Positions 1-31,699 of a stretch of 39,498 bases of DNA are shown here, in pieces. The stretch comes from a virus (lineage: Duplodnaviria; Caudoviricetes). The stretch covers positions 1-39,498 of the IMG/VR virus record IMGVR_UViG_3300033067_001759; one strand, 5' to 3'. The translations under genes and the position numbers were made by a program. Within the stretch, counting starts at the first letter, position 1; each line of letters opens with the position of its first letter. The notes below the pieces were generated by a model that was not told where the DNA came from, ran no database searches, and saw only the letters and a list, made by a program, of their open reading frames with translations.

Positions 1-573
1 ATTGAATTAACAGATGGAAAAGTAGATGATCAGAAGGATATAAACGCATCATTTTTAAAACATCAGTTATCCAAAAAAGGTAAATTAAGTACAGAAAATT
101 CAGTAAAAAATACAGAAACTACAGATAATTCTGTTACATCACAACAAATATTAACCAGCAAACGCAATAAATCAACATCAGCAGGTACGGAAGAATCAGG
201 AAATGGATCACTTCATCAGTTAAATATTAAGAAAAAAGCGCTTGAAATTGAAAAGATTTCAGAAGAAACAGAACTTTTAAAGAAGAAAAATGAAAAAATG
301 GAAGGTGAATTAATACCAACTGGTATGGTTTCATCACTTCTTCAATTACATTTTTCCAGCGTATCTAGTCAATTTAAAAATTCTATTGAAAATATTTTAA
401 CAGAGTGGACCAAACGAAAAGATTTTAGCCGTGAAGAACTAGCGGAATTAAGAGGACAAATGACTGGTGAATTAAATAATTCAATAACAAAATCAGTAAA
501 AGAATCACAACGAAATTTGAATAAAGTACTGGAAGAATTTTCACTACGCAAAGGAGTTGGAGAAAGAATGTAA
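1..573 (+). CDS. terS: Terminase small subunit (Nu1-like), 5' partial
   Basis: Frame 1 is open from base 1 into the 298..573 ORF. LEIEKISEETELLKKKNEKMEGELIP resembles the coiled coil plus GELI motif of Nu1-like proteins. Lies upstream of a GpA-type terL. Confidence 0.65.
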   Translation: MELTDGKVDDQKDINASFLKHQLSKKGKLSTENSVKNTETTDNSVTSQQILTSKRNKSTSAGTEESGNGSLHQLNIKKKALEIEKISEETELLKKKNEKMEGELIPTGMVSSLLQLHFSSVSSQFKNSIENILTEWTKRKDFSREELAELRGQMTGELNNSITKSVKESQRNLNKVLEEFSLRKGVGERM

Positions 574-604: not shown

Positions 605-1420
605 ATGCCACAATTATCACTATCAATCAGTCAAATTAAGTACATAGAAGCACACCGCTTAGAAGAAAGCGGCGCAGATATGGCGCGCAAATTTGGTGTA
701 TCAAAAAGTGTTGTAGGTGTTTATATGCGTAAGCATGGTTTAACTGTACCAAAATCAGTAGTAGGAAAATTTAAAGCCGAAGTTTTAAAAAACAGAACCA
801 CATCAGATGCAAAGACTGACAAATTTATAAAGAAAAATTATCTGCAGATGCCGATAAAATACATGGCGGCAAAGATAAACCGTTCTAATTGTTTCACTAG
901 AAAGCGTATGCAGCAACTTAATCTTATTGTTCCTGCAGAAATTATTGAACAACGAAAAAAAGACAGTCAGTTTAAGAAAGGACAGGAATCACATACAAAG
1001 GGAAAAAAAATGTCACCTGAAACTTACGAAAAAGTAAAAAAAACTATGTTTCAGAAAGGGCACATCACACATAATGCATATCCTGAAAATGGTACAATAG
1101 TAATCAGAAATGATAACAAAGGCAGACAATACAAATACATTCGTATTTCTTTAGGAAAATGGCAGTTGTTGCATCAGTACAATTACGAAAATAAATATGG
1201 AAAGATACCACCAGGACATTGTTTATGGTTTAAAGATGGTAATTCATTGAACTGTGAAGAAGAAAATATAGAACTAATTACCAGATCAGAAAATGCACGT
1301 CGGAACAGACAGAAGTTTCTGCAATTACCGGAAGAATTAAAAATGACTATAAAGATTGTATCAAAAATTAAACGAAAAATCAGAAAAAATGAGCACAAAA
1401 AACAAACTATCAGACCTTAA
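605..1420 (+). CDS. HNH endonuclease-family protein with N-terminal HTH
   Basis: FKKG/FQKGH repeats, then WQLLHQYNYENKYGKIPPGHCLWFKDGNSLNCEEENIELITRSENARRN (HNH_3-like pattern). Confidence 0.75.
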   Translation: MPQLSLSISQIKYIEAHRLEESGADMARKFGVSKSVVGVYMRKHGLTVPKSVVGKFKAEVLKNRTTSDAKTDKFIKKNYLQMPIKYMAAKINRSNCFTRKRMQQLNLIVPAEIIEQRKKDSQFKKGQESHTKGKKMSPETYEKVKKTMFQKGHITHNAYPENGTIVIRNDNKGRQYKYIRISLGKWQLLHQYNYENKYGKIPPGHCLWFKDGNSLNCEEENIELITRSENARRNRQKFLQLPEELKMTIKIVSKIKRKIRKNEHKKQTIRP

Positions 1421-1643
1421 CAATCACCTGTTCGAACAACTGGAAAGATTAAATGATGATGATTTAAAAGGCGAAGATCTTCAGAAAGAAATTGACCGGG
1501 CAAATGCTATGGCAGACATTGGTGGTGTAATTGTAAACAATGCCAAAGTGGTGCTAGCCGCATTCAAACGGATTAATCCGGATGGCGATGTGCTTCCTGA
1601 TATTTTTGAAAGCAGACAAATTGAAATAGGACATAAAAAATAG
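1389..1643 (+). CDS. Conserved small phage protein, commonly adjacent to HNH genes
   Basis: KNKLSDLNNHLFEQLERLND...EIDRANAM motif. The ATG at 1389 is the likelier start. Confidence 0.7.
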   Translation: MSTKNKLSDLNNHLFEQLERLNDDDLKGEDLQKEIDRANAMADIGGVIVNNAKVVLAAFKRINPDGDVLPDIFESRQIEIGHKK

Positions 1644-1645: not shown

Positions 1646-1873
1646 ATGCAATCACAACCAAAAACAGAATTTCAAAAATCATTCGAACAACTGCTGCAGC
1701 AGAATAAACAATTATTTGAAGATGTGGAACTAAATAGTAAAAGTGCAGATGAAGCTGCAATAGCATCAGCCAGTATTTTTCAGCAATTTATTAATAAAAT
1801 GCGCTATCCATCTGAACCTAAACTAAATATAATATCAGGAAATACAAATGAAAACACACAGGTATTAGTATAA
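1646..1873 (+). CDS. Hypothetical protein; its TAA stop is the core of the first array site
   Basis: 75-aa ORF starting 2 nt after the previous stop and ending in gtaTAAC. Confidence 0.6.
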   Translation: MQSQPKTEFQKSFEQLLQQNKQLFEDVELNSKSADEAAIASASIFQQFINKMRYPSEPKLNIISGNTNENTQVLV

Positions 1874-1998
1874 CGTCCGTCGGCTTTATCGTCGTTGCTT
1901 AGAATTAAAAAGAACCATTACAAATACACAAATACTATAAAATTATGAATACAGTTTTAGAAAATGCCGAAAGTAGCAATGCGTTAAAACCGATGTTA
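1871..1998 (+). repeat. attC-like hairpin site 1
   Basis: TAACgtccgTCGGctttatcgtcgTTGCT ... AGCAAtgcgttaaaaCCGAtGTTA. Confidence 0.75.
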
Positions 1999-2292
1999 GC
2001 ATTAGCCTTAACTTCACCTGCTTTAGAATGGCAATCAAATAGAAAAGGTCGTTGCAGTTATCCTGCAAATTTTAGAGGAAAAGTTCCTTTAAAAGTAAAA
2101 GTTGCTAAAAATGTAACTCCTGACTTACCAATGTTTAGTAATATTTTAGGAATACAGAAAGATGATATTTGCTTAAAAGACAACGAATACTATGTTTGGG
2201 TTAATTCTTATGGCGCAGTTTCCGCTATACTTCCAAATGGTAAAAAATTAGGATTACTACCTTCGGAATTCGATGTTACAGAATGGCACTAA
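1945..2292 (+). CDS. Cassette 1 hypothetical protein (starts inside the site 1 loop)
   Basis: 115-aa ORF. The unit is flanked by GTTAGCattagcctt and aaggttgatGCTAAC. Confidence 0.7.
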   Translation: MNTVLENAESSNALKPMLALALTSPALEWQSNRKGRCSYPANFRGKVPLKVKVAKNVTPDLPMFSNILGIQKDDICLKDNEYYVWVNSYGAVSAILPNGKKLGLLPSEFDVTEWH

Positions 2293-2304
2293 AAAGGTTG
2301 ATGC

Positions 2305-2397
2305 TAACGGTTGGGTATTTGTGTCAGGTTTTGCCTTGCACAATGCTCAATTCAAAGCACAAATGTTGATGGCAAAACTTGCACAAATACCTTGTTA
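2305..2397 (+). repeat. attC-like hairpin site 2
   Basis: TAACggttgGGTATTTGTGtCAGGTTTTGCC ... GGCAAAACTTGCACAAATACCttGTTA. Confidence 0.85.
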
Positions 2398-2468
2398 CCT
2401 GCTGATGCGGTTAATTATGGCAAAACTTTAATTGGAACACGAAACAAAAACATTTTAAATTTTAAGCG

Positions 2469-3044
2469 ATGGAAACAATTACAATTTTAATTATTTGCGG
2501 TTTTATGGGATGGTTTTTTGCTAAATCATTGCGAACTGAATCGACAAGTAAAAGCAATATTACCCGAATTGATGATAAGAATTGGATAGTGAACAACGAA
2601 TTTGTATCGTTTGAAGAAGATACTCCAATTCTTAGATTTAAACAGGAGATGGAAGATAATAAGCATTACCGCAATTATGAAAGCGAAAAACTAAGTAGGG
2701 ACAGAGAACGAATATTTAATGACTGGATGAAAACAACACAAGCCATTCACAAACACGCTGATTTGAAAAATTGTGTGACGGAAGAGAAGTTAGAAGCGAT
2801 AACAGAAAAATACGACAAGTATCTTTTTATGTGCAAAAAACTTGACGAAACAACAATGATATTGAGCAAGGAAGAATTTTTAATCAAAGAAGAAAACCCT
2901 GCGTTTTGTGTTGATTGGACTAATATGATGTGGTTTCCGAAACACTTAGGAATTTATGAAATACATAATGAAAAAACCGCAAGGTATTACAAGGGAAATA
3001 TGAATGAACTGATAGCAAAAGAATTTAAAACGAAATGGTATTAA
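2469..3044 (+). CDS. Cassette 2 protein with N-terminal membrane anchor
   Basis: Hydrophobic start METITILIICGFMGWFF; 191 aa. Confidence 0.7.
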   Translation: METITILIICGFMGWFFAKSLRTESTSKSNITRIDDKNWIVNNEFVSFEEDTPILRFKQEMEDNKHYRNYESEKLSRDRERIFNDWMKTTQAIHKHADLKNCVTEEKLEAITEKYDKYLFMCKKLDETTMILSKEEFLIKEENPAFCVDWTNMMWFPKHLGIYEIHNEKTARYYKGNMNELIAKEFKTKWY

Positions 3045-3118
3045 AAGTGCGTAGGCAAAAATTTAAAATGTTTTTTGAACCGAAATGTTATTGGGAACAC
3101 TAATGTAGCATTTGCAGG

Positions 3119-3243
3119 TAACGTTTTGCAGATACCCGAAGGAGGGATTAAGAAGTATAAAAATTAATATAACAAAAAATGTTTAATCGAAGCAAAAATG
3201 TTCATATAACCACTAAAACCCCTCTTTTGGGTATGTGCTGTTA
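3119..3243 (+). repeat. attC-like hairpin site 3
   Basis: TAACgttttGCAgATACCCGAAGGAGGG ... CCCTCTTTTGGGTATgTGCtGTTA. Confidence 0.85.
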
Positions 3244-3275
3244 TAAGCCGTTTTTCTTCACAAATCAACTTTAAA

Positions 3276-3533
3276 ATGATAACAGATAAATTAACAAGAG
3301 AACAACAGCAAGAGTTATTAAATACTCTTTTTGGATTTTACTTTGTAAACACCAATGATGACCATTGGGTATTGTATGACGAAGAAGGACATGAATTTTA
3401 CGGAAGTAATGAAAATTGTCAATTTGACTTTTCAACTCTTGCTGGTATATTTTCATATACTGCCCATAGAGCAAAAAATCAAGGGTATTCAGATTGTCAA
3501 TTTGCAATGCGTAAGGTTTTGGGTATCCGCTAA
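3276..3533 (+). CDS. Cassette 3 hypothetical protein
   Basis: 85-aa ORF with an A-rich leader, between GTTATAAGCCgtttt and aaaatGGCTTATAAC. Confidence 0.7.
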   Translation: MITDKLTREQQQELLNTLFGFYFVNTNDDHWVLYDEEGHEFYGSNENCQFDFSTLAGIFSYTAHRAKNQGYSDCQFAMRKVLGIR

Positions 3534-3542
3534 AATGGCTTA

Positions 3543-3747
3543 TAACGATTAACAGATTTATTTAGTTTTAAAAGTATTATTATGAGAAAACCAAAAGATA
3601 TTTTACATAAAAAATTGTATGCTTTTTTTATGATTTACGGTATAAAAACATCTGACAAATCAATACCATATATTGTTCAAGCAATGCAGGAATACGCAGA
3701 GGAATACCACCATTCCGAACTTTTAAAATTGAATAAATCTGATGTTA
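3543..3747 (+). repeat. attC-like hairpin site 4 (long coding loop)
   Basis: TAACgattaaCAGATTTATTtAGTTTTAAAAGT ... ACTTTTAAAATTgAATAAATCTGatGTTA. Confidence 0.8.
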
Positions 3748-3851
3748 TAAGTTCGGTTTGCAATCATACATGGAAACTTATGAGAAATACACACTATTTA
3801 TACAGATGCACAAAGTGTGGAATGCCAAACGAAATGCAAACTTACTTATAA
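3582..3851 (+). CDS. Cassette 4 small protein with C-terminal zinc-ribbon-like motif
   Basis: CNH...CTKCG motif. Reads through the right arm of site 4 as KLNKSDVISSVC; its stop is the next TAAC. Confidence 0.65.
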   Translation: MRKPKDILHKKLYAFFMIYGIKTSDKSIPYIVQAMQEYAEEYHHSELLKLNKSDVISSVCNHTWKLMRNTHYLYRCTKCGMPNEMQTYL

Positions 3852-3973
3852 CGTTTTGGGGCTTGTAGCAGTAGGGGATTTATAGCACTACTGTTCAACC
3901 TACCACCAAAGCTGATTAGAAGTACACAGCTCAAAATTTGCACTTCTGCCCCTATTGCTACAAACCCTTGTTA
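3849..3973 (+). repeat. attC-like hairpin site 5
   Basis: TAACgttttgGGGcTTGTAGCAGTAGGGG ... CCCCTATTGCTACAAaCCCttGTTA. Confidence 0.85.
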
Positions 3974-4013
3974 TGCGTTCGGGCTTTTGTTTAACGAATT
4001 AAATTTTAAAAAT

Positions 4014-4439
4014 ATGATAATAGCAATTGATTTTGATGGAACGTGTGTAACTCACGAATTTCCAAAAGTGGGAAAGGATATAAAAGCCGTTCCTGTACTA
4101 AAAGCATTGGTTGAAAATGGACACCAATTAGTATTATTCACAATGCGAAGTGATATAGTTAATCCTACTGGTGAGGATAACGAATTGCACCTTGAAAGTG
4201 GCAACTATTTAACCGATGCCGTTAATTGGTTCAAAGAAAATGAAATACCACTTTACGGAATACAAACTAATCCAACTCAACACACTTGGACTACAAGCCC
4301 AAAAGCTTATGCTCAAATGTATATTGATGATGCTGCATTAGGCTGTCCATTAACTTACGATAAAGAATATGCAGAACGTCCATTTGTGGATTGGACTGTT
4401 GTCGGTAATATGTTAAGGTGGAACGGTCTTTTAGCCTGA
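4014..4439 (+). CDS. Cassette 5 HAD-superfamily hydrolase (BT0820-like)
   Basis: IIAIDFDGT (motif I), LFTMR, SPKAYAQMYIDD (motifs III/IV). Confidence 0.85.
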   Translation: MIIAIDFDGTCVTHEFPKVGKDIKAVPVLKALVENGHQLVLFTMRSDIVNPTGEDNELHLESGNYLTDAVNWFKENEIPLYGIQTNPTQHTWTTSPKAYAQMYIDDAALGCPLTYDKEYAERPFVDWTVVGNMLRWNGLLA

Positions 4440-4443
4440 CGCA

Positions 4444-4571
4444 TAACGCTCTGGCGGCTTGCCGTTCGTTGGCGATTAAGAAGTAGAAAAATTCAAGATA
4501 GCAGAATATGAAAAAGAAACCAATAACTCCATTTAAACTGAAAACCGCCAATGACGGCAATGTGCCTGTTA
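4444..4571 (+). repeat. attC-like hairpin site 6
   Basis: TAACgctctGGCggcTTGCCGTtCGTTGGCG ... CGCCAATGACGGCAAtgtGCCtGTTA. Confidence 0.85.
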
Positions 4572-4759
4572 GCGGCAGTTTTATGAGTGTAGTTGCTTTG
4601 GAACGTCTAATTAAAAAGTGGAATGAAGATGCAGACAAAATAAAACTACTCACAGATGTAAAGGAAACAAAACATCAAAGAGAAGTAGCTAACCACTTTT
4701 TAATTCAGTTATACAAGTGTATAGGTGATGCAGAAGCGGAGTTGAAAAATTGCCGCTAA
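4508..4759 (+). CDS. Cassette 6 hypothetical protein (starts in the site 6 loop)
   Basis: 83-aa ORF; its stop is the TAA of the next core. Confidence 0.65.
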   Translation: MKKKPITPFKLKTANDGNVPVSGSFMSVVALERLIKKWNEDADKIKLLTDVKETKHQREVANHFLIQLYKCIGDAEAELKNCR

Positions 4760-4951
4760 CGTTTTGCAGATTTATTTAGTTTATTAATTTATACAATATG
4801 GAAGAAATTAAAAAGATACTTGAAGAAATAATGGATTATCAGATGAATAATGTTCAGTTAGCAAGAACTACTAAGCCATACTTATTGGCAAAGAAAGGAC
4901 TTGAAATTTTAAAAGGAACTGAAATTAATAAATTGAATAAATCTGATGTTA
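4757..4951 (+). repeat. attC-like hairpin site 7 (long coding loop, related to site 4)
   Basis: TAACgttttgCAGATTTATTtAGTTTATTAATTT ... AAATTAATAAATTgAATAAATCTGatGTTA. Confidence 0.8.
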
Positions 4952-5037
4952 TAAGTTCGGTTTGTGAGCATGAAAAAACATACTATTGCTTAGTTACTGG
5001 CGGAATGAGATGCAGAAAATGTAAAAGATGCTTATAA
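4798..5037 (+). CDS. Cassette 7 small protein with C-terminal zinc-ribbon-like motif
   Basis: KLNKSDVISSVCEH...CRKC; shares the arm-encoded peptide with cassette 4. Confidence 0.65.
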   Translation: MEEIKKILEEIMDYQMNNVQLARTTKPYLLAKKGLEILKGTEINKLNKSDVISSVCEHEKTYYCLVTGGMRCRKCKRCL

Positions 5038-5052
5038 CCACAAACTGACTTA

Positions 5053-5178
5053 TAACGTTGGTGCGCTTTGCGTCAGTTGCTGACTTAGAACCGCATATTT
5101 TCCAATAAACCAAAACAAAATTATGAAAACAAATAGTTCAAATACCACAGATTCAGCAATTGCGCAAAACGCCGGTTA
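5053..5178 (+). repeat. attC-like hairpin site 8
   Basis: TAACgttggtGCGcTTTGCGtCAGTTGCTGA ... TCAGCAATTGCGCAAAaCGCcgGTTA. Confidence 0.85.
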
Positions 5179-5641
5179 TGCGCTGCGCAAGAATGATTGT
5201 TTACGCACTCCAAAATATATTACGGATGCGCTCGGAACTTTCAATTTAGATCCGTGTGCTGGTGAACATACAAATATTGCAACTTTCAACCTTTGGGATG
5301 GTCGCGGCGAAAATGGATTAACGGCAGAATGGAACGGTTTTGTTTGGTGTAATCCGCCATTTTCTCAAAAAGAAATCTGGGCCCAAAAAATGATTGAGCA
5401 TAACAACGGAATTTTGATTTTGCCGGAACGCGGATCTGCTCCTTGGTTTGGACCATTAGCTAAAAAAACAGGATGTTATTTTGTTATGGGTAAAAAGATC
5501 AACTTCGAAGGCGGTAGTAGTTCTAATAATCTCGGAAGCATTTTATTTCCGTTCGGAGATCTTGCGGTACAAAGAATTGCTCAAAGCGGACTTCCGGGAC
5601 ATTTCGTGTCGGTTGAATGGTTCCGTGAGCGTCGCGCATAA
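5123..5641 (+). CDS. Cassette 8 phage DNA N6-adenine methyltransferase (phage Dam-like)
   Basis: TPKYITDALGTFNLDPCA, NGL, and the catalytic VWCNPPFS motif. Confidence 0.85.
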   Translation: MKTNSSNTTDSAIAQNAGYALRKNDCLRTPKYITDALGTFNLDPCAGEHTNIATFNLWDGRGENGLTAEWNGFVWCNPPFSQKEIWAQKMIEHNNGILILPERGSAPWFGPLAKKTGCYFVMGKKINFEGGSSSNNLGSILFPFGDLAVQRIAQSGLPGHFVSVEWFRERRA

Positions 5642-5735
5642 CGTTTTGCAGCTTGGTGTCTGTTATTTTGCCTTGCAGATACTTCAAGCATTAGATAAAA
5701 TTTATAGGCAAAATAATAGCACCAAATCGCTGTTA
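5639..5735 (+). repeat. attC-like hairpin site 9 (related to site 2)
   Basis: TAACgttttGCagcTTGGTGtCTGTTATTTTGCCT ... AGGCAAAATAATAGCACCAAatcGCtGTTA. Confidence 0.85.
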
Positions 5736-5770
5736 CCAGCAGTTAATATTCACAATTTAAAAACGAAAAT

Positions 5771-5998
5771 ATGATTTGGTATAAGATTGAAAACAAAAAG
5801 CCACTTGCCTATATGACTGGCGGATGGGATGGCAAAAAGAGCGACAAAGTATTAGTATGCACAAGAAGTGGTAGATACTACGTTGCGGAAATGTATGAAG
5901 GTATTTTAGATGGAAGCGAATTTTGCGACTTCTATGATGACCGAGATTTTGAAATTGAAAACGTGGCTTTTTGGACAGAGATTGATAGTCCGTTTTAA
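5771..5998 (+). CDS. Cassette 9 DUF551-like phage protein
   Basis: W..I..KKP...VLVC...Y.VA.....V.FW.EI..P pattern. Confidence 0.7.
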   Translation: MIWYKIENKKPLAYMTGGWDGKKSDKVLVCTRSGRYYVAEMYEGILDGSEFCDFYDDRDFEIENVAFWTEIDSPF

Positions 5999-6002
5999 TT
6001 GC

Positions 6003-6030
6003 TGGTAACATACAATATATACAGCAACCT
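6003..6030. other. Putative attI-like insertion site (lone core without a partner arm)
   Basis: tggTAACatacaatatatacagcaacc. It closes cassette 9, has A rather than G after TAAC, has no downstream GTTA arm, and lies about 55 bp before the recombinase. Confidence 0.55.
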
Positions 6031-6062
6031 ATCAAAATTATTAATAACCAAATAATTAAACC

Positions 6063-6899
6063 ATGAATATTCCCAAGTACATAGATTTATTCAGGAATGA
6101 AATTACCAGAAAAGGTTTTCGTCCGGCAACCATAAAAAACTATGTTAGCTGCATCGAATGCTTTCTACATTATTTTGAAGGTAAAGTTACGGAACCGGTA
6201 AAAATTAACGAACAACAGATCAAAGACTATCTGGCAACTTTTCAAACACAAAACACACAGCGCGCAAATCATTCTGCCATAAAATGTTTTTTTATATACA
6301 CACTGAAACAGCCAAACAAATTTAAATACATTGAATATTGCAAGCGCGATAGAAAATTACCGATTGTTTTATCTGTAGAAGAAATACAGAAACTATTTAA
6401 TGCCTGCACCAATGTAAAGCACAAAGCAATTTTGTCATTATTGTACAGCGCAGGGCTTCGAGTATCAGAAGTAATTAACCTGAAAATTACGCATATTGAC
6501 AGCAGCAGAATGATCATAAATATTATCAATGCAAAAGGTGGAAAAGACAGACAAGTAATGCTTAATCAAAACGTGCTGGAATTGCTGCGTACTTATTATA
6601 AAATGTACAAACCTAAAGAATATCTGTTTAACGGACAAAATTCACAGCAGTATTCTTCCAGAAGCATCAATGAGTTTTTAAAAACATATGCAGATAAAGC
6701 TGGCATTGAAAATAAAAGAATTTACGCACATCTGATGCGCCACACTTCATTTACGCACATGGTAGAAAACGGAACAGATATTAATCTTATTCAAAAATTA
6801 GCCGGACATTCTTCTGTAAAAACAACATTGCTGTACACGCACATCAGTCATAATCTAATAAAAAATATTCAATCACCAATTGCACAAATTAATTTGTAA
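6063..6899 (+). CDS. Integron-integrase-like tyrosine recombinase lacking the IntI-specific insertion
   Basis: N-terminal TIKNY SAM-like domain, LPIVLSVEE, GLRVSE, KGGKDR, HLMRH, LAGHSSVKTTLLYTH, terminal SP. R-K-H-R-H-Y residues are intact. Only a short linker precedes YLF. Confidence 0.9.
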   Translation: MNIPKYIDLFRNEITRKGFRPATIKNYVSCIECFLHYFEGKVTEPVKINEQQIKDYLATFQTQNTQRANHSAIKCFFIYTLKQPNKFKYIEYCKRDRKLPIVLSVEEIQKLFNACTNVKHKAILSLLYSAGLRVSEVINLKITHIDSSRMIINIINAKGGKDRQVMLNQNVLELLRTYYKMYKPKEYLFNGQNSQQYSSRSINEFLKTYADKAGIENKRIYAHLMRHTSFTHMVENGTDINLIQKLAGHSSVKTTLLYTHISHNLIKNIQSPIAQINL

Positions 6900-8902
6900 T
6901 GCTAGTTGATTATTCGAAATACCACCAAACATTACACGAAATTCTGGAATCTTTAGACATCCGATTTTCAGATATTAAGCCATCAGAATGGGTAGAGAGA
7001 AATCGGGTAATGACATCTGCAGAAAGCAGCATGCCGGGACCGTTTTCCTATAATCGTACACCATATTGCCGTGAAATTGTAGATTGTATGATGCCGGACC
7101 ATCCAGCACGTATCATTTCTGTGATGAAAGGCGCACAGATCGGATTTTCTACAGGTGTAATTGAACCGGCAATTGGTTGGATAATTGCAGAAAGTCCTGG
7201 AACTACCATGCTTTTAACTGGTCATTCAGACTTATCAGAAGAAGCAGTTACTAAAATTGATGGATTAATAGACAGTTGCGGAATCCGGCATTTGATAAAA
7301 CCAACTGTACAGCGTGCCAGAAACACAAAAACCGGTGATACCAATAATAAAAAAGAATTTGCCGGTGGTAGTTTAGTTTCTGGAAGCGCAGGCAATCATA
7401 AATTATTACGTCAGCGTTCTATCCGTTATGGTTTTATAGATGATTTTGATGCTGCAAAGAATAAGTCAAAAGAATCAGGTAGCACGCGTAAAATGATTGA
7501 AAAACGTTTTGCTGCTTATGATGATAAGATGAAGCTGTACTACATTTCCACACCAGAAACACGGCCATCGAATATTGAAGAGGTTTATTTACTTGGTGAT
7601 CAGCGGAAATGGCATGTTCCATGTCCATGTTGCGGTGAAATGATAGTATTAGAATGGTCAATACCTATCGAAAATTCAAAAGAAACCGCTGGAATTACAT
7701 ATAGATTAAATGAAAATAACCGTTTAATTCATGAAAGTGTTGGTTACATATGTCAAAAATGTGGCGATTTCTTTACAGAAAAACATAAATACGACATGAA
7801 TTTGAATGGCAAATGGATTCCAACAGCTATTCCATACCAGGAAGGAAACTATTCTTACCATATTTCTGGATTAAATGCACCACCTAGTAATGCCGGTTGG
7901 GAACAATGTGTGCTGGATTATCTGGAAGCAAATCCACCTGATGGCAATCGTAAGGAAGATTTGCATCAAACTTTTATGAATTTATGCCTAGGTGAAGCTT
8001 ATGAAATTTCTGCAGAAGAAATTAAAGCGACAGAACTGCAGAAGAATATCAGAAATTATGAAATAGGCATTATACCTGAAAAATTATCTATAGAAGATGG
8101 CAACGGTAAAATAGTAATGCTCACGCTAGGTTGCGACTTAAACGGAAAGCTGGATGATGCGCGTTTAGATTTCGAAATTGTTGCGCATTCAGAAAATGCT
8201 GCTACTTATTCTATTTTACACGGAAGCATCGGAACATTTATACCACGTGAAGGCAAAAACGGAATAGATCGGGAAAGATGGACATATCAGCACGGCATGG
8301 AAAAAAGCGTATGGAAAGAATTGGAAAATATTTTACTGAAAAAATATGCAACTGATACTGGCAGAAATATAATGATAGCAGCTGCAGGTATAGATATTGG
8401 ATATGAAACAGAACACGCATGGCAATATATCAATAAAACTAATCATTTTTTTGTAGTTGGTTTAAAAGGAAAGGATATTAATAAATATGTTCCGCTTAAC
8501 AGAGATGCTAAAACTTTTAAAAAATCGTTGGAAAATCCTAAACTGTATCTGGTAGAATCCAATATTTGTAAAGATAAGCTGGCAGAACTGATGCGCTTAA
8601 AGTGGGACAAATCGCTTTCTGATGTGCAGCCTTCCGGATTTATGAATTATCCGGTGCCATCCGGCGGAAAATACCTGTTTGATAATTACTTTTCACATTT
8701 CGAAGCAGAACATCGAAAAATTGACAAAGACGGCCATTACCGCTGGCTAAAAAAATCAGACATGCACCAGAACCACTTGTTTGACTGCCGCATTTATGCC
8801 AATACTGTACGTGATGTATTAGTATGGAACATCTGCAAAGAAATGAAAATACAGAACGGCACCTGGACAGACTATTGTGATATTTTATTAAAAAGAAGAT
8901 AG
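6899..8902 (+). CDS. terL: Terminase large subunit, lambda GpA family
   Basis: GPFSYNRTPY, MKGAQIGFS, YISTP, GDQRKWHVPCPCCG, YICQKCG, NHLFDC. Confidence 0.95.
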   Translation: MLVDYSKYHQTLHEILESLDIRFSDIKPSEWVERNRVMTSAESSMPGPFSYNRTPYCREIVDCMMPDHPARIISVMKGAQIGFSTGVIEPAIGWIIAESPGTTMLLTGHSDLSEEAVTKIDGLIDSCGIRHLIKPTVQRARNTKTGDTNNKKEFAGGSLVSGSAGNHKLLRQRSIRYGFIDDFDAAKNKSKESGSTRKMIEKRFAAYDDKMKLYYISTPETRPSNIEEVYLLGDQRKWHVPCPCCGEMIVLEWSIPIENSKETAGITYRLNENNRLIHESVGYICQKCGDFFTEKHKYDMNLNGKWIPTAIPYQEGNYSYHISGLNAPPSNAGWEQCVLDYLEANPPDGNRKEDLHQTFMNLCLGEAYEISAEEIKATELQKNIRNYEIGIIPEKLSIEDGNGKIVMLTLGCDLNGKLDDARLDFEIVAHSENAATYSILHGSIGTFIPREGKNGIDRERWTYQHGMEKSVWKELENILLKKYATDTGRNIMIAAAGIDIGYETEHAWQYINKTNHFFVVGLKGKDINKYVPLNRDAKTFKKSLENPKLYLVESNICKDKLAELMRLKWDKSLSDVQPSGFMNYPVPSGGKYLFDNYFSHFEAEHRKIDKDGHYRWLKKSDMHQNHLFDCRIYANTVRDVLVWNICKEMKIQNGTWTDYCDILLKRR

Positions 8903-10089: not shown

Positions 10090-10290
10090 ATGTTTATAAC
10101 AGATGATGGATTTCAATTACAAAAATACGGAATGTGGTTTGTAGTTACTCATAATTCTGAAACTACAAATAGTATTCCAGCCAATAATGCTATTATTGGT
10201 GTAAATAATAATAGTTATTCAAATTTATTTCTAAAAGAAGAAAATGCAATTAAATTTATAGAATTATTACAAAATAATAATTCCAAATAA
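10090..10290 (+). CDS. Hypothetical protein
   Basis: 66-aa ORF in operon position, converging on the reverse-strand operon. Confidence 0.45.
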   Translation: MFITDDGFQLQKYGMWFVVTHNSETTNSIPANNAIIGVNNNSYSNLFLKEENAIKFIELLQNNNSK

Positions 10291-11025
10291 ATCATCCACT
10301 TCCACTAGCTTCTGTCTGTAATCTTTCAGGTAATAACCGGATTTAGTTTCATCAGAATAGTAATCCTGCAATAGCTGGCTGCGTTCAATATTTGCTTTTG
10401 CAGAAGAATTGCGCGCTTTTCGTTCAATATCTTTGCGAACCCAGCTGTAATGATGCATTGGCGCATCCATTAATTCTGTATTGTATAAATTTAAACATAC
10501 ATCATTTATTTGTATTTTCCGTGTAGGATCTACATAATACGGATAGTATTTTGCACCGGCAAACGTGCTTTCTTTTAGTTCATGGATAAACGGCACGTAA
10601 TAATTGTCCGGCGCTTCCAGACGTAATGTTGGCTTTTTAAAATAGGTCATTATTTTGCAAACAGATCCTTTTGCACCGGATGCCAGAAACTGCTGTTTCA
10701 TGCCGCCAAAATTTTCATAGTATTCATCACAGTCCAAATGCAGAAAGTGTGTGCATCCTTCTTCTTTGGCATACTGCAGGCCTAAATTACGTTTCAGTAT
10801 CTCATTTTCAGTTCCACAATATCTTCTCGGTTCATATTTTACCAGCAATACTTCACAACCAAAGTCCGGCACTTTAAAATCATCCATCGGATTATACCGT
10901 TCACCAAAGTTGGAAACATCCTGCCACACCAGGATAAAAATATCTACTTCATCCTTCAGGCATTTCATACTGCCGTACAGCAGTTCAACACCATCCCAAA
11001 CATTATAAATGGCGGCTAATTTCAT
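10267..11025 (-). CDS. Glycosyltransferase, GT-A fold (GT2-like)
   Basis: MKLAAIYNVWDG start, KRNLGLQYA, HLDCDEY (DxD), MHHYSWVR. Confidence 0.75.
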   Translation of the reverse strand: MKLAAIYNVWDGVELLYGSMKCLKDEVDIFILVWQDVSNFGERYNPMDDFKVPDFGCEVLLVKYEPRRYCGTENEILKRNLGLQYAKEEGCTHFLHLDCDEYYENFGGMKQQFLASGAKGSVCKIMTYFKKPTLRLEAPDNYYVPFIHELKESTFAGAKYYPYYVDPTRKIQINDVCLNLYNTELMDAPMHHYSWVRKDIERKARNSSAKANIERSQLLQDYYSDETKSGYYLKDYRQKLVEVDDLFGIIIL

Positions 11026-11300
11026 TCTTTACAAGTTGGTTCAGGTAGTTCTTTACTATCATTTCCACGTTGTGGCTTATTTTGTAATTCTCTTAAATAG
11101 ACTTTTGCCCAATTTTTAAGGTAATCAGCAGTCGCTTTTTTACCTTCATGAAATCCAATCTGATAAATTTCATCATTAGATGCATATTGATCAGTGCGGC
11201 ATTGTTTAATACCATCGGATTTTCCGAAAAAATACCCGGATAAAAATGCCAGTAATCCAACAACCGGTATGGCAATAGATAAAATTGTTTGTAATTCCAT
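11022..11300 (-). CDS. Small membrane-anchored protein
   Basis: N-terminal TM segment; ATGA-coupled to the downstream gene. Confidence 0.65.
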   Translation of the reverse strand: MELQTILSIAIPVVGLLAFLSGYFFGKSDGIKQCRTDQYASNDEIYQIGFHEGKKATADYLKNWAKVYLRELQNKPQRGNDSKELPEPTCKE

Positions 11301-11306
11301 AATTTT

Positions 11307-11900
11307 TTATTTACACAAAATGATATTTTCAGCGTTTAAATACTTTGTTTGTAAACCAAATGGTTCAAGTTTACTTACAATTTCTACAATACGTTCATCG
11401 TGCTCAATGCAAATCATTTCTATCTGTTGCCAGAACCAATCCGGAATAGCATTAAAAATTTGCATGTTGGTAGCTTCCGTATCAATGCTGATAAAGCTGG
11501 CATCTTTGCCATGCGCTTCCAGAAATTCTACGACATGCAGCTGCGGAACTTTAATAGTTTGAAAATTAACACCACCTTTCTGCCACTTTTCTTTATGTTC
11601 CTGCACTGATGTAGAAACAGCATCACCACCGGAAGAATAGAATTCCAGTTCTTCATTTGAAACACCGATGGCAACATTCAGCACTGTAATGCGTGGTATA
11701 TTTTCGTAATGTTCGGCGATTGCTTTATAGTTTATTGGATCCGCTTCAACCAACACACCATTCCATCCTTCTTCAAAAAGTTTGCGCGTATTGGATAACT
11801 GAAATACATGAAAAGCGCCGATGTCAATAAATTTTCCAACCTTGTTTTTTTTGGCAAAATATTCCGTAATAATCTGTTCTTCTTTGTTTTGTGAGTACAT
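11307..11900 (-). CDS. FkbM-family SAM methyltransferase
   Basis: YSQNKEE, FIDIGA, SNT..L...GWNGVLVEA, FISIDTE, ICIEH. Confidence 0.9.
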   Translation of the reverse strand: MYSQNKEEQIITEYFAKKNKVGKFIDIGAFHVFQLSNTRKLFEEGWNGVLVEADPINYKAIAEHYENIPRITVLNVAIGVSNEELEFYSSGGDAVSTSVQEHKEKWQKGGVNFQTIKVPQLHVVEFLEAHGKDASFISIDTEATNMQIFNAIPDWFWQQIEMICIEHDERIVEIVSKLEPFGLQTKYLNAENIILCK

Positions 11901-11906
11901 AAATGC

Positions 11907-12476
11907 TTATTTTATAATGACTAATACATCATCAAAACGGTTCAGAATATGCCTTCTGTCCAGAATGGTGACTGTTTTACTTTTATCAATATTTTCAAAA
12001 GCGGCCCGGCTTTTATCAATGTCTTCAATGTCTTCAATAATGTAAATGCCACTTGGTGCCAGGTATTCTTTGTAAATTTGGTACAGCTTAAGTTGCTGTT
12101 CCAGCGAGTGGTTTGCATCTTCAATAATGACATTGAACTTCTTACCATAAAAATGAAAATCCACTTCTTCAGGGTTTTCCGCATCAAATATTTTAATGGT
12201 ATGTTCACCGCTTTTAATCATTTCGCGCAAATCTGCCATGCCATCGTGTGGTGTTTCGTGGCAATCCACACCAATTACATCTGCAAATTCAAAATACTGT
12301 TCCCACAAGCGTAAAGAATTTCCTTTAAACACACCGATTTCCAGCACTTTATTGGCTGTTTTACGATATGGTTCCAGGAATTCTTCATACACATCAATAT
12401 AACTGTGTACGGTGCCTTTGTCCGTTTCAAATCCCTGTTGCTGCAGTGTTTGAAATATGTTTTTTAATGTGTTCAT
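11907..12476 (-). CDS. Class I SAM-dependent (sugar O-) methyltransferase
   Basis: TDKGTVHSYIDVYE, VLEIGVFKGNSLRLW, IIEDANH, GIYIIEDI. Confidence 0.85.
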   Translation of the reverse strand: MNTLKNIFQTLQQQGFETDKGTVHSYIDVYEEFLEPYRKTANKVLEIGVFKGNSLRLWEQYFEFADVIGVDCHETPHDGMADLREMIKSGEHTIKIFDAENPEEVDFHFYGKKFNVIIEDANHSLEQQLKLYQIYKEYLAPSGIYIIEDIEDIDKSRAAFENIDKSKTVTILDRRHILNRFDDVLVIIK

Positions 12477-13333
12477 AATGGATATCTTTTGCCTGCTATT
12501 TCTACCTGATTATCCATTTTTTCATAACCTAAATTTTCAGGATGTCCTAAGTTTATAATAATTCCTTCTGAAAGCCAACTGGCAACCGAACCGGTGCTGC
12601 TTCTGTTTTTTATATACCAGAAACATTTCGAAAATAACCAAACCATAAGCGCAGGTTGCATGCCGCGTTCAAATCCGCTTATTGGAATATGTCTTTCAGG
12701 ATTATCCAGGCTGCCAAGCGGCGAAGAATGAAATTCATCAATATTAAATGACTGCGGATAACGGTCCAGCAGCGGCTGCAAAATGGTTTCTTCTTCTGCT
12801 GTACACATGATGCGCGCATCTGGTGTAGCTTCCAGTGCCAAATCTATGTATTTAAAATACGTTTCAATTGGCATCCGCGGACGGCCATCTGTTACGTTAT
12901 CCGTTCCGCGCCAGGTAATACCAATAGTTTTAGAAAAATTTATGTTGTATTTTTCTACTATCTGTTGTCCGCGCTGGTTAACCACATCATTAAAATGCAG
13001 GTATTTTTTGTAATATTCTTTAATGACATCCAACGGTTGTGCCATAAACGGCACAGGGCTGCTATCCTGCCAGTTTTCCCAAGTCCATACTTCAGTTGCC
13101 GGTTGAACTTCTTTTATTTTTGGCTGTGTAAAATACCACTCAAACATATTTGGAATCGTCGAAAACTTTTCAGTATCGTGGTATGGTAGCAGCGCGCGTG
13201 GCGGTGTATGTCCATCCGGCCAGTTAATGTAAACGTCTTTTCCCTGTTGTTCTGCTGCCCACATTTGCCAGAATGCACAGTAAATCCATGTGGTTAAGGT
13301 AGCTGCAACGTCTGTTTTTTCTAAATAAATCAT
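12473..13333 (-). CDS. NodZ/fucosyltransferase-like glycosyltransferase
   Basis: NMFEWYFTQP, IGITWRGTD (H/W-x-R-G-T-D GDP-fucose motif), LFSKC..YI...SS. Confidence 0.65.
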   Translation of the reverse strand: MIYLEKTDVAATLTTWIYCAFWQMWAAEQQGKDVYINWPDGHTPPRALLPYHDTEKFSTIPNMFEWYFTQPKIKEVQPATEVWTWENWQDSSPVPFMAQPLDVIKEYYKKYLHFNDVVNQRGQQIVEKYNINFSKTIGITWRGTDNVTDGRPRMPIETYFKYIDLALEATPDARIMCTAEEETILQPLLDRYPQSFNIDEFHSSPLGSLDNPERHIPISGFERGMQPALMVWLFSKCFWYIKNRSSTGSVASWLSEGIIINLGHPENLGYEKMDNQVEIAGKRYPL

Positions 13334-14031
13334 TGTATCAGTTTTTGTAATTCATATTCATAACTTGCCGTTAAATCTTTTGTAGTATCAGTGCTGTCAA
13401 CTTTTCCGGTAGAAAAATCTATAGTTTGCCAGGTACGATGAAAACCAAATGGAAATTCACGTAAATATTTTGGATTACGGTTTCCGCCCTGTGCAAAATC
13501 ACATGCCTGTTCTTTAGTTGCAAACTTAAAGTGACTAAAAGATTTATTCAAACACAATACACCATCTTCATAATAACCTAATCCTTGCTGCAATATTTCA
13601 GTATCTTCAAAAGATTCATTCCAATCTGGTAATAATTCTGCTGCATATTGCATAAGTTTTTTAGACCGCAAAGAAAATCCACCGCTTCCAACCCCATCAA
13701 ATTGTACAAATAATGGTCCTATATAATCCAGTTCCAGCCATTCCATTTTAAATGATTGCGCATTTAATATCCAGCCATCACGTTGTACAATCAATAAATT
13801 TGGCGTGTCAATATATTGATGCAGCTTTTTAAGCATAAAAACAGAATACATTACTAAAGAAGTCAGCGGCATAATTTCTACACGGTGTTCAGATTCTGCC
13901 GGAAGATGTGTTAGCAGCTTCACAGCACCAAAATCAGCCTTTTGTTTACAGATTTCCAGCACCATTGCCGCGCGGTTTGCATCTACGCAGTCAACACAAA
14001 CTAATGTAACTGTAGGTAATTGTAGTTTCAT
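13330..14031 (-). CDS. DUF5672-like putative glycosyltransferase
   Basis: LPTVTLVCVD, YSVFMLKKL..YIDT..LLIVQRDGWILN, DYIGP, VGSGGFSLRSKKL, ED, PFGFH. Confidence 0.75.
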   Translation of the reverse strand: MKLQLPTVTLVCVDCVDANRAAMVLEICKQKADFGAVKLLTHLPAESEHRVEIMPLTSLVMYSVFMLKKLHQYIDTPNLLIVQRDGWILNAQSFKMEWLELDYIGPLFVQFDGVGSGGFSLRSKKLMQYAAELLPDWNESFEDTEILQQGLGYYEDGVLCLNKSFSHFKFATKEQACDFAQGGNRNPKYLREFPFGFHRTWQTIDFSTGKVDSTDTTKDLTASYEYELQKLIQ

Positions 14032-14621
14032 TTATTGCTTATAAATCTGTAGTGATACAATATTTTTTCTGTGTAAAATTCATTTTTTAGTAATCCCGAT
14101 TTGTGTATTTGTTTGGACCAGTCATGATCTTCACCAAAATTCTTTTCAGGAAACTTAAACTGTTTGGCAATTTCCGCCCGAATGCAGTTCAAATGATTTG
14201 GATAACGTTCGTATTTTACAAAGTTGTCTGTGGTTTTCCATTCATTATATTTTAAAGAATGTTCGAAAATTTCTGGATTGTTACCGTTGGTAGTCATTAT
14301 GCCACGTAAAGAAACTACATCAGGTTCTGTTGCTAATGCCGTTCTGATAGTAGAAATATAATCGCTTTTTGGAAAATCATCATCATCAAAGGAGCAAATA
14401 TATTTACCTTCTGCAGCTTTTAAAAGTCTGTTTCTTTTAGCACCTAAGCATAAATTTTCATCTTTATCCATTAAAATTTCTATATCAGAAAAAATGTATT
14501 TTTTAATTTCACCAATAGTAATACGTAAATTACCACCTATTTGTATTTCAAATTCACTTAAAAGTGAATACAGCATTTCTTTTCTGCTGCTTATAGTAGG
14601 TATTAAAATAGATAGCATCAT
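14028..14621 (-). CDS. Glycosyltransferase family 2
   Basis: LSILIPT..R, GAKRNRLL..AEGKYICSFDDDD, FGEDHDW. Confidence 0.85.
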   Translation of the reverse strand: MMLSILIPTISSRKEMLYSLLSEFEIQIGGNLRITIGEIKKYIFSDIEILMDKDENLCLGAKRNRLLKAAEGKYICSFDDDDFPKSDYISTIRTALATEPDVVSLRGIMTTNGNNPEIFEHSLKYNEWKTTDNFVKYERYPNHLNCIRAEIAKQFKFPEKNFGEDHDWSKQIHKSGLLKNEFYTEKILYHYRFISNK

Positions 14622-15268
14622 AGTGGAAAATTTACAGATTTACGTTTATAATAAGTTAGCTTTCCAGAATCCCAGTGTTGATTATTTCGTAAATAAGTAG
14701 CATCCTTTTCTGCTTTTCCGTTGCAATAATGATGATGTGGAAATACAAGTGTTGGAACTTCCAATAGCCAGTTGTTATTTTTGCTGGTCCAGTATAAATC
14801 CTGGTCAACAAACATAGATTTGTATTGCGGATGCCATAAATAACCTAGCTTATTATACAAAGTCCGGTTCATTATTGGTATGGTAATAATATCTACTTCA
14901 AATTTCTGTAAAGCATCGTCTGTTTTTAAAATCAATGGCTTTTCCATGCCAGCATCTAAAAAAATACGGATTATTTTTTCATCCCATCCGGCAGGACAAA
15001 CAAAATCATCTGATAGATAAACTAGAATATCACCGGTCGCAACAGATGCAGCTAAATTCGTAGCTTCTACTAAACAACTGTTATTATTTTCTATAATACA
15101 AGATCTTGTAAAAAGCAATCTATATTTAGAAATTTCAGGATCATCAGTATCTAATGATAAAACATGTTCAATTTCAAACATCAAACTACTGCAATTAAGC
15201 CAATTCATAAAAGTATGATAAGCTTTCATGGCACGTCCGCGCGATGGATGTATTAAAGATATTTTCAT
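14618..15268 (-). CDS. Glycosyltransferase, GT-A fold
   Basis: ISLIHPSRGR, ATN..A..ATGDILVYLSDD, Y.SMFVD.DL, HHH. Confidence 0.8.
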   Translation of the reverse strand: MKISLIHPSRGRAMKAYHTFMNWLNCSSLMFEIEHVLSLDTDDPEISKYRLLFTRSCIIENNNSCLVEATNLAASVATGDILVYLSDDFVCPAGWDEKIIRIFLDAGMEKPLILKTDDALQKFEVDIITIPIMNRTLYNKLGYLWHPQYKSMFVDQDLYWTSKNNNWLLEVPTLVFPHHHYCNGKAEKDATYLRNNQHWDSGKLTYYKRKSVNFPL

Positions 15269-15396
15269 GATAATTGTAATTCTAACTGTTTCATTTCAGC
15301 CGCAGTTTTTTTTATCTGAATTAATTTCTTTTTTGTTGATGGATGATTTTTCCATTCTTCAAACGTAAAAGGATATTTTAAAGGCTTAATTTTCAT
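15265..15396 (-). CDS. 43-aa hypothetical protein (not in ORF track)
   Basis: MKIKPLKYPFTFEEWKNHPSTKKKLIQIKKTAAEMKQLELQLS; fills the gap and overlaps both neighbours (ATGA coupling). Confidence 0.55.
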   Translation of the reverse strand: MKIKPLKYPFTFEEWKNHPSTKKKLIQIKKTAAEMKQLELQLS

Positions 15397-16054
15397 TATA
15401 ATACTGTGTATAAAAATTAAAACTTTCAAAATCATCATGTTCCTGTATCATGTGCTTATGCAGATACACAAACTTTTCATCTTTATTGGTAAATCGGTGC
15501 AGTTTGTCAACATGGTTTACACCGCCGCAAAGTCCTACACCATGTTTTATACCTATTGCAATTGGATTTACAGGATTAACAATTTTGCCATTTAATCCGG
15601 TATGCAGCCATAAATGTAAATCTGTGTAAGGATCATTGTCAGCACACCAGCTAAAATGCAAATCTGGTTTTATAAGCGTATTCATGGCGCTGGCACGTTC
15701 CGGATGATTCATAGTAAAATATCCGCGTTCTTTCAAGTGATAATATACAGTGTATGCAGTACCAAATAAATCTGGCATATCATAATGCATCCATCGTTTC
15801 ACCATGAATTCTATATAATTAGGTGCATACCAGTCGTCATTTTCAATCAATAAAATACAATCAAATCCTTTTCCGCGCAAACGTTCATATCCTGTACGAT
15901 AACGCCAGGTAATATCTTTTTCTGCAGAAAGTGGAGGATCAGCCACAATTTCGATGTGATCAGGTGGTATTGTTTGTTTGCGCATCATCCGCAAACAATT
16001 ATTTAAAAATTCGTGGCGGTCGCCACGGTCCGGTATGATGATTGCAGTCTTCAT
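15386..16054 (-). CDS. Glycosyltransferase, GT-A fold
   Basis: MKTAIIIPDRGDR..FL...L....QT, ILLIENDDWY. Confidence 0.75.
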   Translation of the reverse strand: MKTAIIIPDRGDRHEFLNNCLRMMRKQTIPPDHIEIVADPPLSAEKDITWRYRTGYERLRGKGFDCILLIENDDWYAPNYIEFMVKRWMHYDMPDLFGTAYTVYYHLKERGYFTMNHPERASAMNTLIKPDLHFSWCADNDPYTDLHLWLHTGLNGKIVNPVNPIAIGIKHGVGLCGGVNHVDKLHRFTNKDEKFVYLHKHMIQEHDDFESFNFYTQYYNEN

Positions 16055-16058
16055 ACAC

Positions 16059-30104: not shown

Positions 30105-30130
30105 TTTTTAATTAAAGAAAAAAATAAAGC

Positions 30131-30574: not shown

Positions 30575-30612
30575 AGAAACATAAATTATTAAATAAAATT
30601 TAAACATAAAAA

Positions 30613-31674: not shown

Positions 31675-31699
31675 TTGCGCGCTGTTGTATAAATATTTT

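Follow-up and report, generated by a model that had tools for sequence, protein, structure and literature searches.

INTRODUCTION

In classical integrons the 5′ end of the gene for the integrase, IntI, lies beside a hairpin-less insertion site, attI, next to which one-gene cassettes are shuffled in an array. The cassette sites, attC, have AAC/GTT cores with a G after AAC, an imperfect hairpin with a variable loop and one unpaired T in the 3′ arm; cassette ends are complementary in the circle and the sites form repeat families. The attC bottom strand is cut between the A and C of AAC, with the G following (PMC2727003). The I2 helix of the integrase is reported to dock extrahelical bases and block second-strand exchange, and is described as the innovation that enabled integron integrases to use single-stranded sites (PMC7790495). 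Genome surveys do not count a recombinase near attC sites as IntI when it lacks I2 (PMC4889954), and an IntegronFinder survey of complete genomes names one complete Bacteroidota integron, in Salinibacter (PMC9024848). In phages, Qi et al. (2023) reported classical integrons and attC clusters in 21 of 10,705 genomes, and of six sites only P12002L_attC1, from a Polaribacter phage, was not recombined by IntI1 (PMC9892861). Here we analyse a locus that shares the above features of layout and site with classical integrons, sedentary chromosomal ones above all: an array of nine hairpin-headed gene cassettes beside a small tyrosine recombinase, in a 39.5-kb single-contig virus record (IMG/VR IMGVR_UViG_3300033067_001759, positions 1 to 39,498; this whole stretch is called the window).

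Comparison shows a mobile cassette array whose members close relatives of the phage swap and put in new order at TAAC joints; the adjacent I2-less recombinase is its probable mover via folded single strands. The platform appears to work like an integron; judged from its sequence it falls outside the integrons on enzyme, strand-selecting base and gene polarity. An earlier note, made from the letters of the window alone, had taken integrons to be normally chromosomal, plasmid or transposon elements; phage-borne classical integrons and attC clusters were already published (PMC9892861). The novelty therefore does not lie in the location on a phage but in the family of the enzyme, the polarity of the cassettes and the way the sites are built. 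The phage integrons and attC clusters (CALINs) of Qi et al. likewise place cassette sites in phage genomes and carry DNA methyltransferase cargo, but in the excerpts of that paper they have a canonical IntI or no enzyme, and an I2-less recombinase, a lone core and reversed polarity do not appear. The inverted-integrase integrons of Treponema also have the integrase and the cassette genes co-directional; theirs, however, is a true IntI placed before the array (PMC4889954), whereas here the enzyme lies downstream of the co-oriented genes, and it is the gene, not the integrase, whose direction is reversed with respect to the site. A Treponema-like layout is seen with the longer homologues on Flavobacteriaceae chromosomes.

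No description of this system was found in the open-access PMC and bioRxiv literature; one may exist in subscription journals or bioRxiv supplements. It is not described in the excerpts of PMC8138268, PMC8618304, PMC11602168, PMC8776804 and bioRxiv 10.1101/2024.07.02.601686, nor in those of PMC2727003, PMC7790495, PMC4889954 and PMC9024848.

RESULTS

Cassettes are replaced and reordered at TAAC joints

The nine hairpins of 93–205 bp that the earlier note had listed, each opening with TAACG and closing with GTTA, were all confirmed in place between 1871 and 5735, as was a tenth, lone core (TAAC at 6006) beside an intact open frame for a tyrosine recombinase (6063–6899). Public contigs were compared with the window at 99% identity (four runs from three studies) and at 90%; the runs are called X1–X6. 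In run X2, whose study differs from that of the best holder, X1, a contig is identical to the window over 839–2309, continues with 974 other nucleotides and rejoins at 3119, so that cassette 2 is replaced from core to core. An X3 contig holds cassette 6 unchanged (4441–4759) with other sequence on both flanks. At the distal end of the array, X5 and X6 contigs match the window backbone up to the TAACG at 1875 and then enter different hairpin starts; an X4 contig also tracks the window up to the first core, and a metagenome contig (L340) that is 97.5% identical over 1322–1878 then passes into another hairpin start. At the proximal end, X4 and X5 have the recombinase side in common with the window and diverge left of 6006, cassette 9 being replaced.

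Single cassettes recur in other surroundings. L115–L118 hold copies of cassette 5 that measure 595–596 bp from core to core, are 84–95% identical and stand between flanks unrelated to those of the window; L341 holds a 91% copy of cassette 2 (over 2305–3124) with other neighbours. In a separate phage lineage, identical cassettes stand in the order G-H-I in L011 and L013 and in the order I-H-..-G in L009 and L012, the recombinase regions of this group being 98.8% identical; such a reordering would fit successive excision and re-insertion at the lone core. Most joints have only 4–9 letters in common, mostly TAAC(G) alone, presumably too few for assembly errors at the usual word lengths.

The earlier note had named an invariant gene set in related phages, and the lack of cassettes with identical boundaries elsewhere, as outcomes that would speak against a phage-borne platform for cassette capture and shuffling. 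Instead, near-identical phages carry replaced or reordered cassettes, and cassettes 2, 5 and 6 recur core to core, so that both comparisons support the proposal. As in integrons, the cassettes are discrete and mobile, with exact boundaries, and are gained, lost and reordered. The special value of the window is that it holds a complete unit together with same-phage variants that pin the joints.

The moving unit and the exchange point

The unit that moves is not the gene between GTTA and TAAC alone, as the earlier note had it, but the hairpin with its downstream gene, from TAAC to the next TAAC. Among 63 near-identical hairpin pairs, nine keep the downstream side and change upstream, one does the reverse, 52 differ on both sides and one on neither; because of this nine-to-one split, the cassette is best defined as a hairpin plus the following gene, core to core, with the hairpins forming repeat families. 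The ends of the core covary (GTTA..TAAC in 53 cases, GTTG..CAAC in six, mixed in none), so that a core's initial base goes with the start of the upstream cassette itself, and two contigs depart from the window after TAA into one and the same next unit, which starts with T. Since the core ends covary and these contigs depart after TAA, the exchange point lies within Y-A-A-C. Site polarity is the same as in classical attC sites, and the cut between A and C of the attC bottom strand falls within this interval. As a separate observation, the family of the site-5 hairpin (3849–3973) is very abundant in unrelated contigs, where its summed depth greatly exceeds that of the phage itself; this suggests a repeat family that many phages have in common.

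Sites and cassettes of the window

Sites were called by a detector that aligns and pairs the two inner arms of the hairpin. Its geometry was tuned on the nine sites of the window, and other loci are therefore its real test. On the + strand of the whole window it calls exactly the nine sites at thresholds of 20, 24 and 28; in 200 dinucleotide shuffles of 1801–6100 it found no site in 194 and one site in six. The folding energy of site 1 is no better than that of shuffled sequence (z +0.8), although its arms do align; the other sites have z from −1.2 to −6.0. The features are collected in Table 1.

Table 1. Coordinates of the array and the adjoining genes in the window (aa, amino acids; ORF, open reading frame)
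Feature	Coordinates	Strand	Hairpin	Gene and remarks
terS, probable, C-terminal part	1–573	+		phrog_57 E 8e-4, phrog_5193 E 3e-14; truncated by window edge
HNH endonuclease	605–1420	+		Backbone gene left of array
phrog_2044 protein	about 1389–1643	+		Backbone gene left of array
75-aa ORF	1646–1873	+		Ends on the TAA of the first core, its stop codon
Distal joint	1871–1875	+		Fixed backbone on left, variable cassette on right
Cassette 1, 434 bp	1871–2304	+	1871–1998 (128 bp)	ORF 1945–2292, 115 aa, no family
Cassette 2, 814 bp	2305–3118	+	2305–2397 (93 bp)	ORF 2469–3044, 191 aa, no family above cut-off
Cassette 3, 424 bp	3119–3542	+	3119–3243 (125 bp)	ORF 3276–3533, 85 aa
Cassette 4, 306 bp	3543–3848	+	3543–3747 (205 bp)	ORF 3582–3851, 89 aa
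Cassette 5, 595 bp	3849–4443	+	3849–3973 (125 bp)	HAD-type phosphatase-like ORF 4014–4439
Cassette 6, 313 bp	4444–4756	+	4444–4571 (128 bp)	ORF 4508–4759, 83 aa
Cassette 7, 296 bp	4757–5052	+	4757–4951 (195 bp)	ORF 4798–5037, 79 aa
Cassette 8, 586 bp	5053–5638	+	5053–5178 (126 bp)	Dam-like N6-adenine DNA methyltransferase 5123–5641
Cassette 9, 367 bp	5639–6005	+	5639–5735 (97 bp)	ORF 5771–5998, 75 aa
attI-like lone core and conserved AT-rich motif	6006–6062	+		57 nt before recombinase start
Tyrosine recombinase, 278 aa	6063–6899	+		PF13495 and PF00589; Xer-sized, without the IntI I2 insertion
terL, gpA type	6899–8902	+		1-base overlap with recombinase stop codon

The complementary ends of about 15 bp in the earlier description are present: each unit's ends match over 7–11 of the 14 positions outside the core, and its own partner is the best or tied best in every row. 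Hairpins and genes do not alternate strictly, as that description had it, since five of the nine ORFs (starting at 1945, 3582, 4508, 4798 and 5123) begin within a hairpin. At four places (1871, 3849, 4757 and 5639) the ORF to the left terminates on the TAA of a core, and in related loci this is so in 21 of 128 cassettes. The distal joint has no T at −7 on its left side, a T that is present at all nine cassette ends; the matrix of the distal-end motif is made mostly of cassette ends, as chains of sites were followed only part of the way in most arrays (4 of 9 in the window), and it therefore says nothing about a conserved second half of the empty site. Cassette 9 adjoins the lone core and is therefore predicted to be the newest arrival.

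Cassettes 4 and 7 have bodies of just 109 bp, and the ORF of cassette 4 lies mostly inside the hairpin loop, its stop at the next core. The two (3543–3851 and 4757–5037) have common arms and a short Cys/His-rich C-terminal piece, their loop-encoded N-terminal halves differ, and the same arms occur with further loops in other contigs, which suggests that half-genes of this type may be shuffled.

The cassette 5 ORF matches NF046079 below the cut-off (E 3e-19), and the methyltransferase of cassette 8 matches PF05869 above it (E 5e-10) and is labelled orphan methyltransferase by PADLOC, which returned nothing else for the nine cassette proteins. The ESM Atlas gave no informative match for the cassette 2 protein. 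An Rfam scan gave no match beyond one chance hit, and scans for sigma-70 promoters and for terminators were at chance level. Bacteroidota promoters have a −7 motif; it was not enriched on the coding strand (41 matches against 40 expected).

Site design and strand

As in attC sites, there are cores and a folding imperfect palindrome; what is conserved is YAAC and GTTR only, not the full seven-base boxes. In the window, each GTTA is followed by 11 nt that can pair with the 11 nt in front of the next TAAC. Over 134 unselected consecutive pairs, this outer arm is 58–92% complementary at positions 1–11 except position 7 (1%) and drops to background beyond position 11 (18–32%), control arms giving 25–46%. 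Position 7 sets a G against a T, read on the coding strand, in 70% of 155 pairs, as against one of six at canonical loci, which differ from the phage sites in this 11-nt outer arm. In the 3′ arm one paired A and one unpaired T are nearly invariant (92% each), and throughout the hairpin arms complementarity is conserved and sequence is not. The circle form folds 2–12 kcal/mol better than the array form in all nine window sites, and the top strand folds better than the bottom strand in eight of them. Because the features of the outer arm pair only in a circular cassette, we infer single-strand recombination of the TAACG strand by way of circles, and this is our main reason for doing so.

Two further features set these sites apart from classical ones. 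The extrahelical G that selects the strand in attC (a C in the 3′-arm complement) is found in 11% of 203 sites, against 71% of 17 canonical sites. In 146 of 147 pairs the gene is encoded by the TAACG strand and faces the lone core, whereas at canonical loci genes are opposite to that strand in five of six; a Pc promoter at the lone core therefore could not drive the cassettes. In integrons, reading from attI, each gene precedes its attC; this order does not hold here, as the hairpin travels with the downstream gene, heads it and often holds its start (58 of 128). A +4 spacer offset was considered as unique to the phage sites and ruled out, since 13 of the 17 sites at canonical Bacteroidota IntI loci, a small and repeat-dominated sample from 20 regions, have it too.

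The recombinase

The recombinase appears intact, with the residues R133, K161, H223, R226, H249 and Y258, its catalytic residues being conserved in a 77-row alignment, and its structure model is confident (predicted local distance difference test, pLDDT, 94). It falls below every curated cut-off tested: NF040815 (204 of 220 bits), the integron integrase model TIGR02249 (153 of 265 bits) and the Xer models TIGR02224 and TIGR02225. Alignment with an annotated integron integrase shows insertions of 28 and 11 residues in the catalytic domain that are missing here, among them the IntI-specific I2 helix (intI_Cterm region), and the match to IntI4 splits in two (query 178–203 against IntI4 180–248). 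The best sequence match is archaeal XerA (5HXY, E 4.5e-34); a fold search puts XerA and IntI4 first, with the highest template modelling score for IntI4 (2A3V, 0.77).

A quick IQ-TREE tree of 89 rows taken from 184, unrooted and with up to 10 fragments or fusions left out, places the recombinase in a branch of 28 rows (Shimodaira–Hasegawa-like approximate likelihood ratio test, SH-aLRT, 99), apart from the 16 rows of IntI (100) and the 11 rows of long host forms (100), and so outside the IntI clade. This branch is also apart from the Xer-like rows; the deeper order, and sisterhood with IntI, are not settled by the tree. The enzyme is thus like Xer (archaeal XerA, XerC/D, NF040815) in its size, two-domain fold and best sequence and profile scores, but is unlike it in falling below the cut-offs, in branching apart from the XerC/D-like rows and in lying beside an array rather than a single dif-like site; no search for dif itself was made.

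Arrays beside the recombinase in other viruses

The best 80 of 139 viral stretches with a recombinase homologue (41–69% identity) were scanned. At threshold 28 there were 198 same-strand sites in 432 kb upstream of the gene against one in 659 kb downstream; opposite-strand sites numbered 10 upstream and one downstream. At threshold 24, 64 of the 68 loci with at least 500 nt upstream had a site, or 39 of 43 clusters at 90% identity. Of the 80 loci, 66 have a hairpin-less YAAC with a conserved motif at a distance of 53–57 nt from the ATG, on its upstream side, and nine of the 14 misses are one lineage with the core 71 nt before the gene. By position and motif this is an attI-like site next to the integrase, and the cassettes change exactly there. 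The link from recombinase to cassette movement is, as far as sequence comparison goes, strong but correlative.

In 67 of 77 loci, near-duplicates being left out, the next ORF of at least 120 aa after the recombinase was terL in 12, terS in two and a second, longer integrase in five. Because of these five separate integrases, the recombinase need not serve lysogeny. The family comprises 4167 protein clusters at E ≤ 1e-40, more distant relatives included.

Some further viral loci are of interest in their own right. Upstream of the recombinase in L063 are six opposite-strand and four same-strand sites, possibly a second, facing array. In the cultured phages Leef_1 (39% homologue) and Ingeline (32%) the detector found no array. 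The Polaribacter phage Leef_1 has a TAAC about 58 nt before its annotated integrase, counted by hand (L112:8900-9010), and one short site 3.7 kb upstream of it. Phage P12002L (L113, minus strand 30008–38936) has four TAACG..TGTTA sites, three of them just before DNA-modification genes, and no annotated integrase; the arm-pairing detector picks up P12002L_attC1 as a TAACG..TGTTA site heading a methyltransferase gene. Both Leef_1 and P12002L are cultured phages that could be used as models.

Host chromosomes and canonical controls

A longer relative of the enzyme is common in hosts. In the family of G002 (Flavobacterium) a homologue, mostly longer, is present in 95 of 151 genomes, and on Flavobacterium-family chromosomes (L229–L248) the homologue frames are mostly 370–410 aa. 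The strict, TAAC-only detector found almost nothing in 20 host regions (two sites upstream, one downstream). A looser YAAY/GTTR detector gave 68 hits downstream on the opposite strand against 6, 12 and 5 in the other compartments, so that some of its hits are noise. Host chains mostly end at a lone core about 55–140 nt past the homologue gene; the G.T arm is present in 83% of 35 pairs, and genes run in the canonical direction in 31 of 33. Host and phage thus appear to use a common site code with opposite cassette orientation, since the phage genes are flipped.

A canonical IntI above cut-off was found in 90 of 301 sampled Bacteroidota genomes, and 20 such loci, with 17 sites in arrays, served for the canonical values given above. 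This frequency is far above what a RefSeq-based survey suggests, and the spacer of the attC sites at such loci (L270–L299, L318–L337) is often longer.

Cassette cargo

The 90 longest of 171 cassette ORFs were compared with Pfam, and 29 matched, among them 15 DNA methyltransferases, one Mom and four PAPS-reductase-like proteins. The cargo families are not confined to cassettes, because few homologues have a detected site: one of four for cassette 8 homologues at 69–75% identity, and four of 56 HAD homologue loci checked, where L115 and L116, which start with CAAC, were missed by the detector.

Phage type and gene context

Tail sheath, baseplate, portal, protease and major head genes indicate a myovirus-type tailed phage. 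Among named genomes, the closest homologues of the recombinase come from assemblies of Taibaiella (77%), Chitinophaga (61%) and Flavobacterium (57%), and the host is therefore probably one of the Bacteroidota. The earlier note had set the array between terS and terL. It does lie upstream of terL; terS is not adjacent, being separated from the array by the HNH gene, the phrog_2044 gene and the 75-aa ORF, and its call is weak (phrog_57, E 8e-4), although a 31%-identical homologue abuts terL in L082. The overlap of the recombinase stop and the terL start by one base (6897–6901) suggests that the recombinase is probably co-expressed with the packaging genes. Elsewhere in the window, eight or nine genes on the minus strand (10267–16075) run against the structural genes; they include two glycosyltransferases and two methyltransferases, have no cassette sites and are likely a surface- or DNA-modification island.

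DISCUSSION

The mechanism that we propose would start with folding of the TAACG (coding) strand, which would be cut where attC bottom strands are, between A and C. When two adjacent sites recombine, they would release a circle in which the cassette's own ends lengthen the hairpin by 11 bp, making it a better substrate than in the array and favouring insertion over excision. The circle would then insert mainly at the double-stranded lone core, and phage replication would both resolve the one strand exchange and be a source of single-stranded DNA. The strand would be chosen through the G.T pair, the asymmetric spacer and the one extrahelical T, in place of the I2 helix and extrahelical G, and the purpose may be to renew accessory genes quickly, many of them for DNA-modification enzymes that would counter host restriction. 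That the recombinase catalyses the movement, that circles form and that the chemistry is single-stranded are all deductions.

Several observations weigh against this account. The enzyme has no helix of the kind reported to dock extrahelical bases. The strand bias of 181 out of 184 comes from sites selected for a good outer arm, and the wobble bias of the inner arm is mild (341 to 253). No circle junction or empty site is among the joints listed from contigs of runs X1–X6, a lack that shows nothing. Sister phage L081 (terL 93%) has another cassette and a lone core and yet has no recombinase before terL. At threshold 24, 10 of the 80 viral loci have a downstream site and 4 of 68 have none upstream. 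Hairpins recur before unrelated genes (52 of the 63 pairs, and contig ends that run loose beyond 3972 and 5735), and in L342 gene 2 is still joined to the next hairpin while its own hairpin is altered, so that exchange at the GTTA side is possible. In a second X2 contig, cassette 2 (2326–3118) is joined directly to site 7 (4757) with 15 letters that fit both sides, and short-homology recombination could explain that one joint. Lastly, the canonical IntI of Bacteroidota could act in trans.

The same cassettes and enzyme might instead work by double-strand, Xer- or Cre-like chemistry with two strand exchanges, the hairpins being a by-product of symmetric sites. This would suit an enzyme of Xer size without I2 whose best matches are archaeal XerA, as well as the lack of a conserved extrahelical G, but we think it unlikely: the arms are conserved in complementarity and not in sequence, they pair across 50–200 nt, and the fixed G.T mismatch, the unpaired T and the asymmetric spacer have meaning only in a folded strand. 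Moreover, tyrosine recombinases check homology at second-strand exchange, and the 4–5 nt that neighbouring sites share at the joint are too little for that. A somewhat smaller chance falls to movement by a host enzyme in trans, either the longer chromosomal homologue or a canonical IntI, with the phage recombinase dispensable or used, for example, in dimer resolution. L081 and P12002L do have sites without a recombinase, and both kinds of host enzyme are frequent in the genomes sampled, the homologue with same-type hits downstream of it. Yet the phage gene keeps its lone core at 53–57 nt and its arrays on that side only, across enzymes of 41–69% identity, and the sole failure with IntI1 among the six sites of Qi et al. 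(PMC9892861) was P12002L_attC1, a single data point.

Short-homology recombination between repeated intergenic elements, with the hairpins as regulatory RNA or DNA and no site-specific enzyme, is very improbable as a general account. It could draw on the recurrence of hairpin families before different genes, on the joint with 15 shared nucleotides and on the many genes that start in a loop, which suggests translational control; most joints, however, share TAAC(G) only, end complementarity specific to each cassette is useful only once it is circular, and the Rfam, promoter and terminator scans gave nothing above chance. We give next to no credence to the GTTA..TAAC units being MITE-like transposons, with 15-bp terminal inverted repeats, that inserted into hairpins. 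Every unit does have its own inverted repeat, but the repeats differ from unit to unit, no target duplication is visible at the joints compared, the genes scanned around the array include no transposase, and the upstream hairpin travels with the gene. A mobile array moved by its adjacent recombinase through folded single strands is the reading that we retain as probable.

Beyond this, we lean, at little better than even confidence, towards a second, independent kind of integron. It would pair an Xer-sized, I2-less recombinase acting on folded single-stranded DNA with another structural code (a G.T outer arm formed only in the circle and one extrahelical T). It would occur in thousands of phages of Bacteroidota, and on many chromosomes of their hosts, and be invisible to IntI-based searches, with the phage cassettes opposite in orientation to those of the host. 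Such a system would be either a living model of the state before I2 or a convergent invention, and a phage-side counterpart of the host's banks of defence cassettes.

An I2-less family with active cassette arrays would make the origin of single-strand chemistry directly testable with a 278-aa enzyme and natural substrates, and a small recombinase with structure-defined sites could also become a cloning tool. The arrays would fill a gap in the Bacteroidota, where the survey named one complete integron, and would provide a site-specific mechanism for the mosaicism of phage accessory genes, with a cargo rich in DNA-modification genes.

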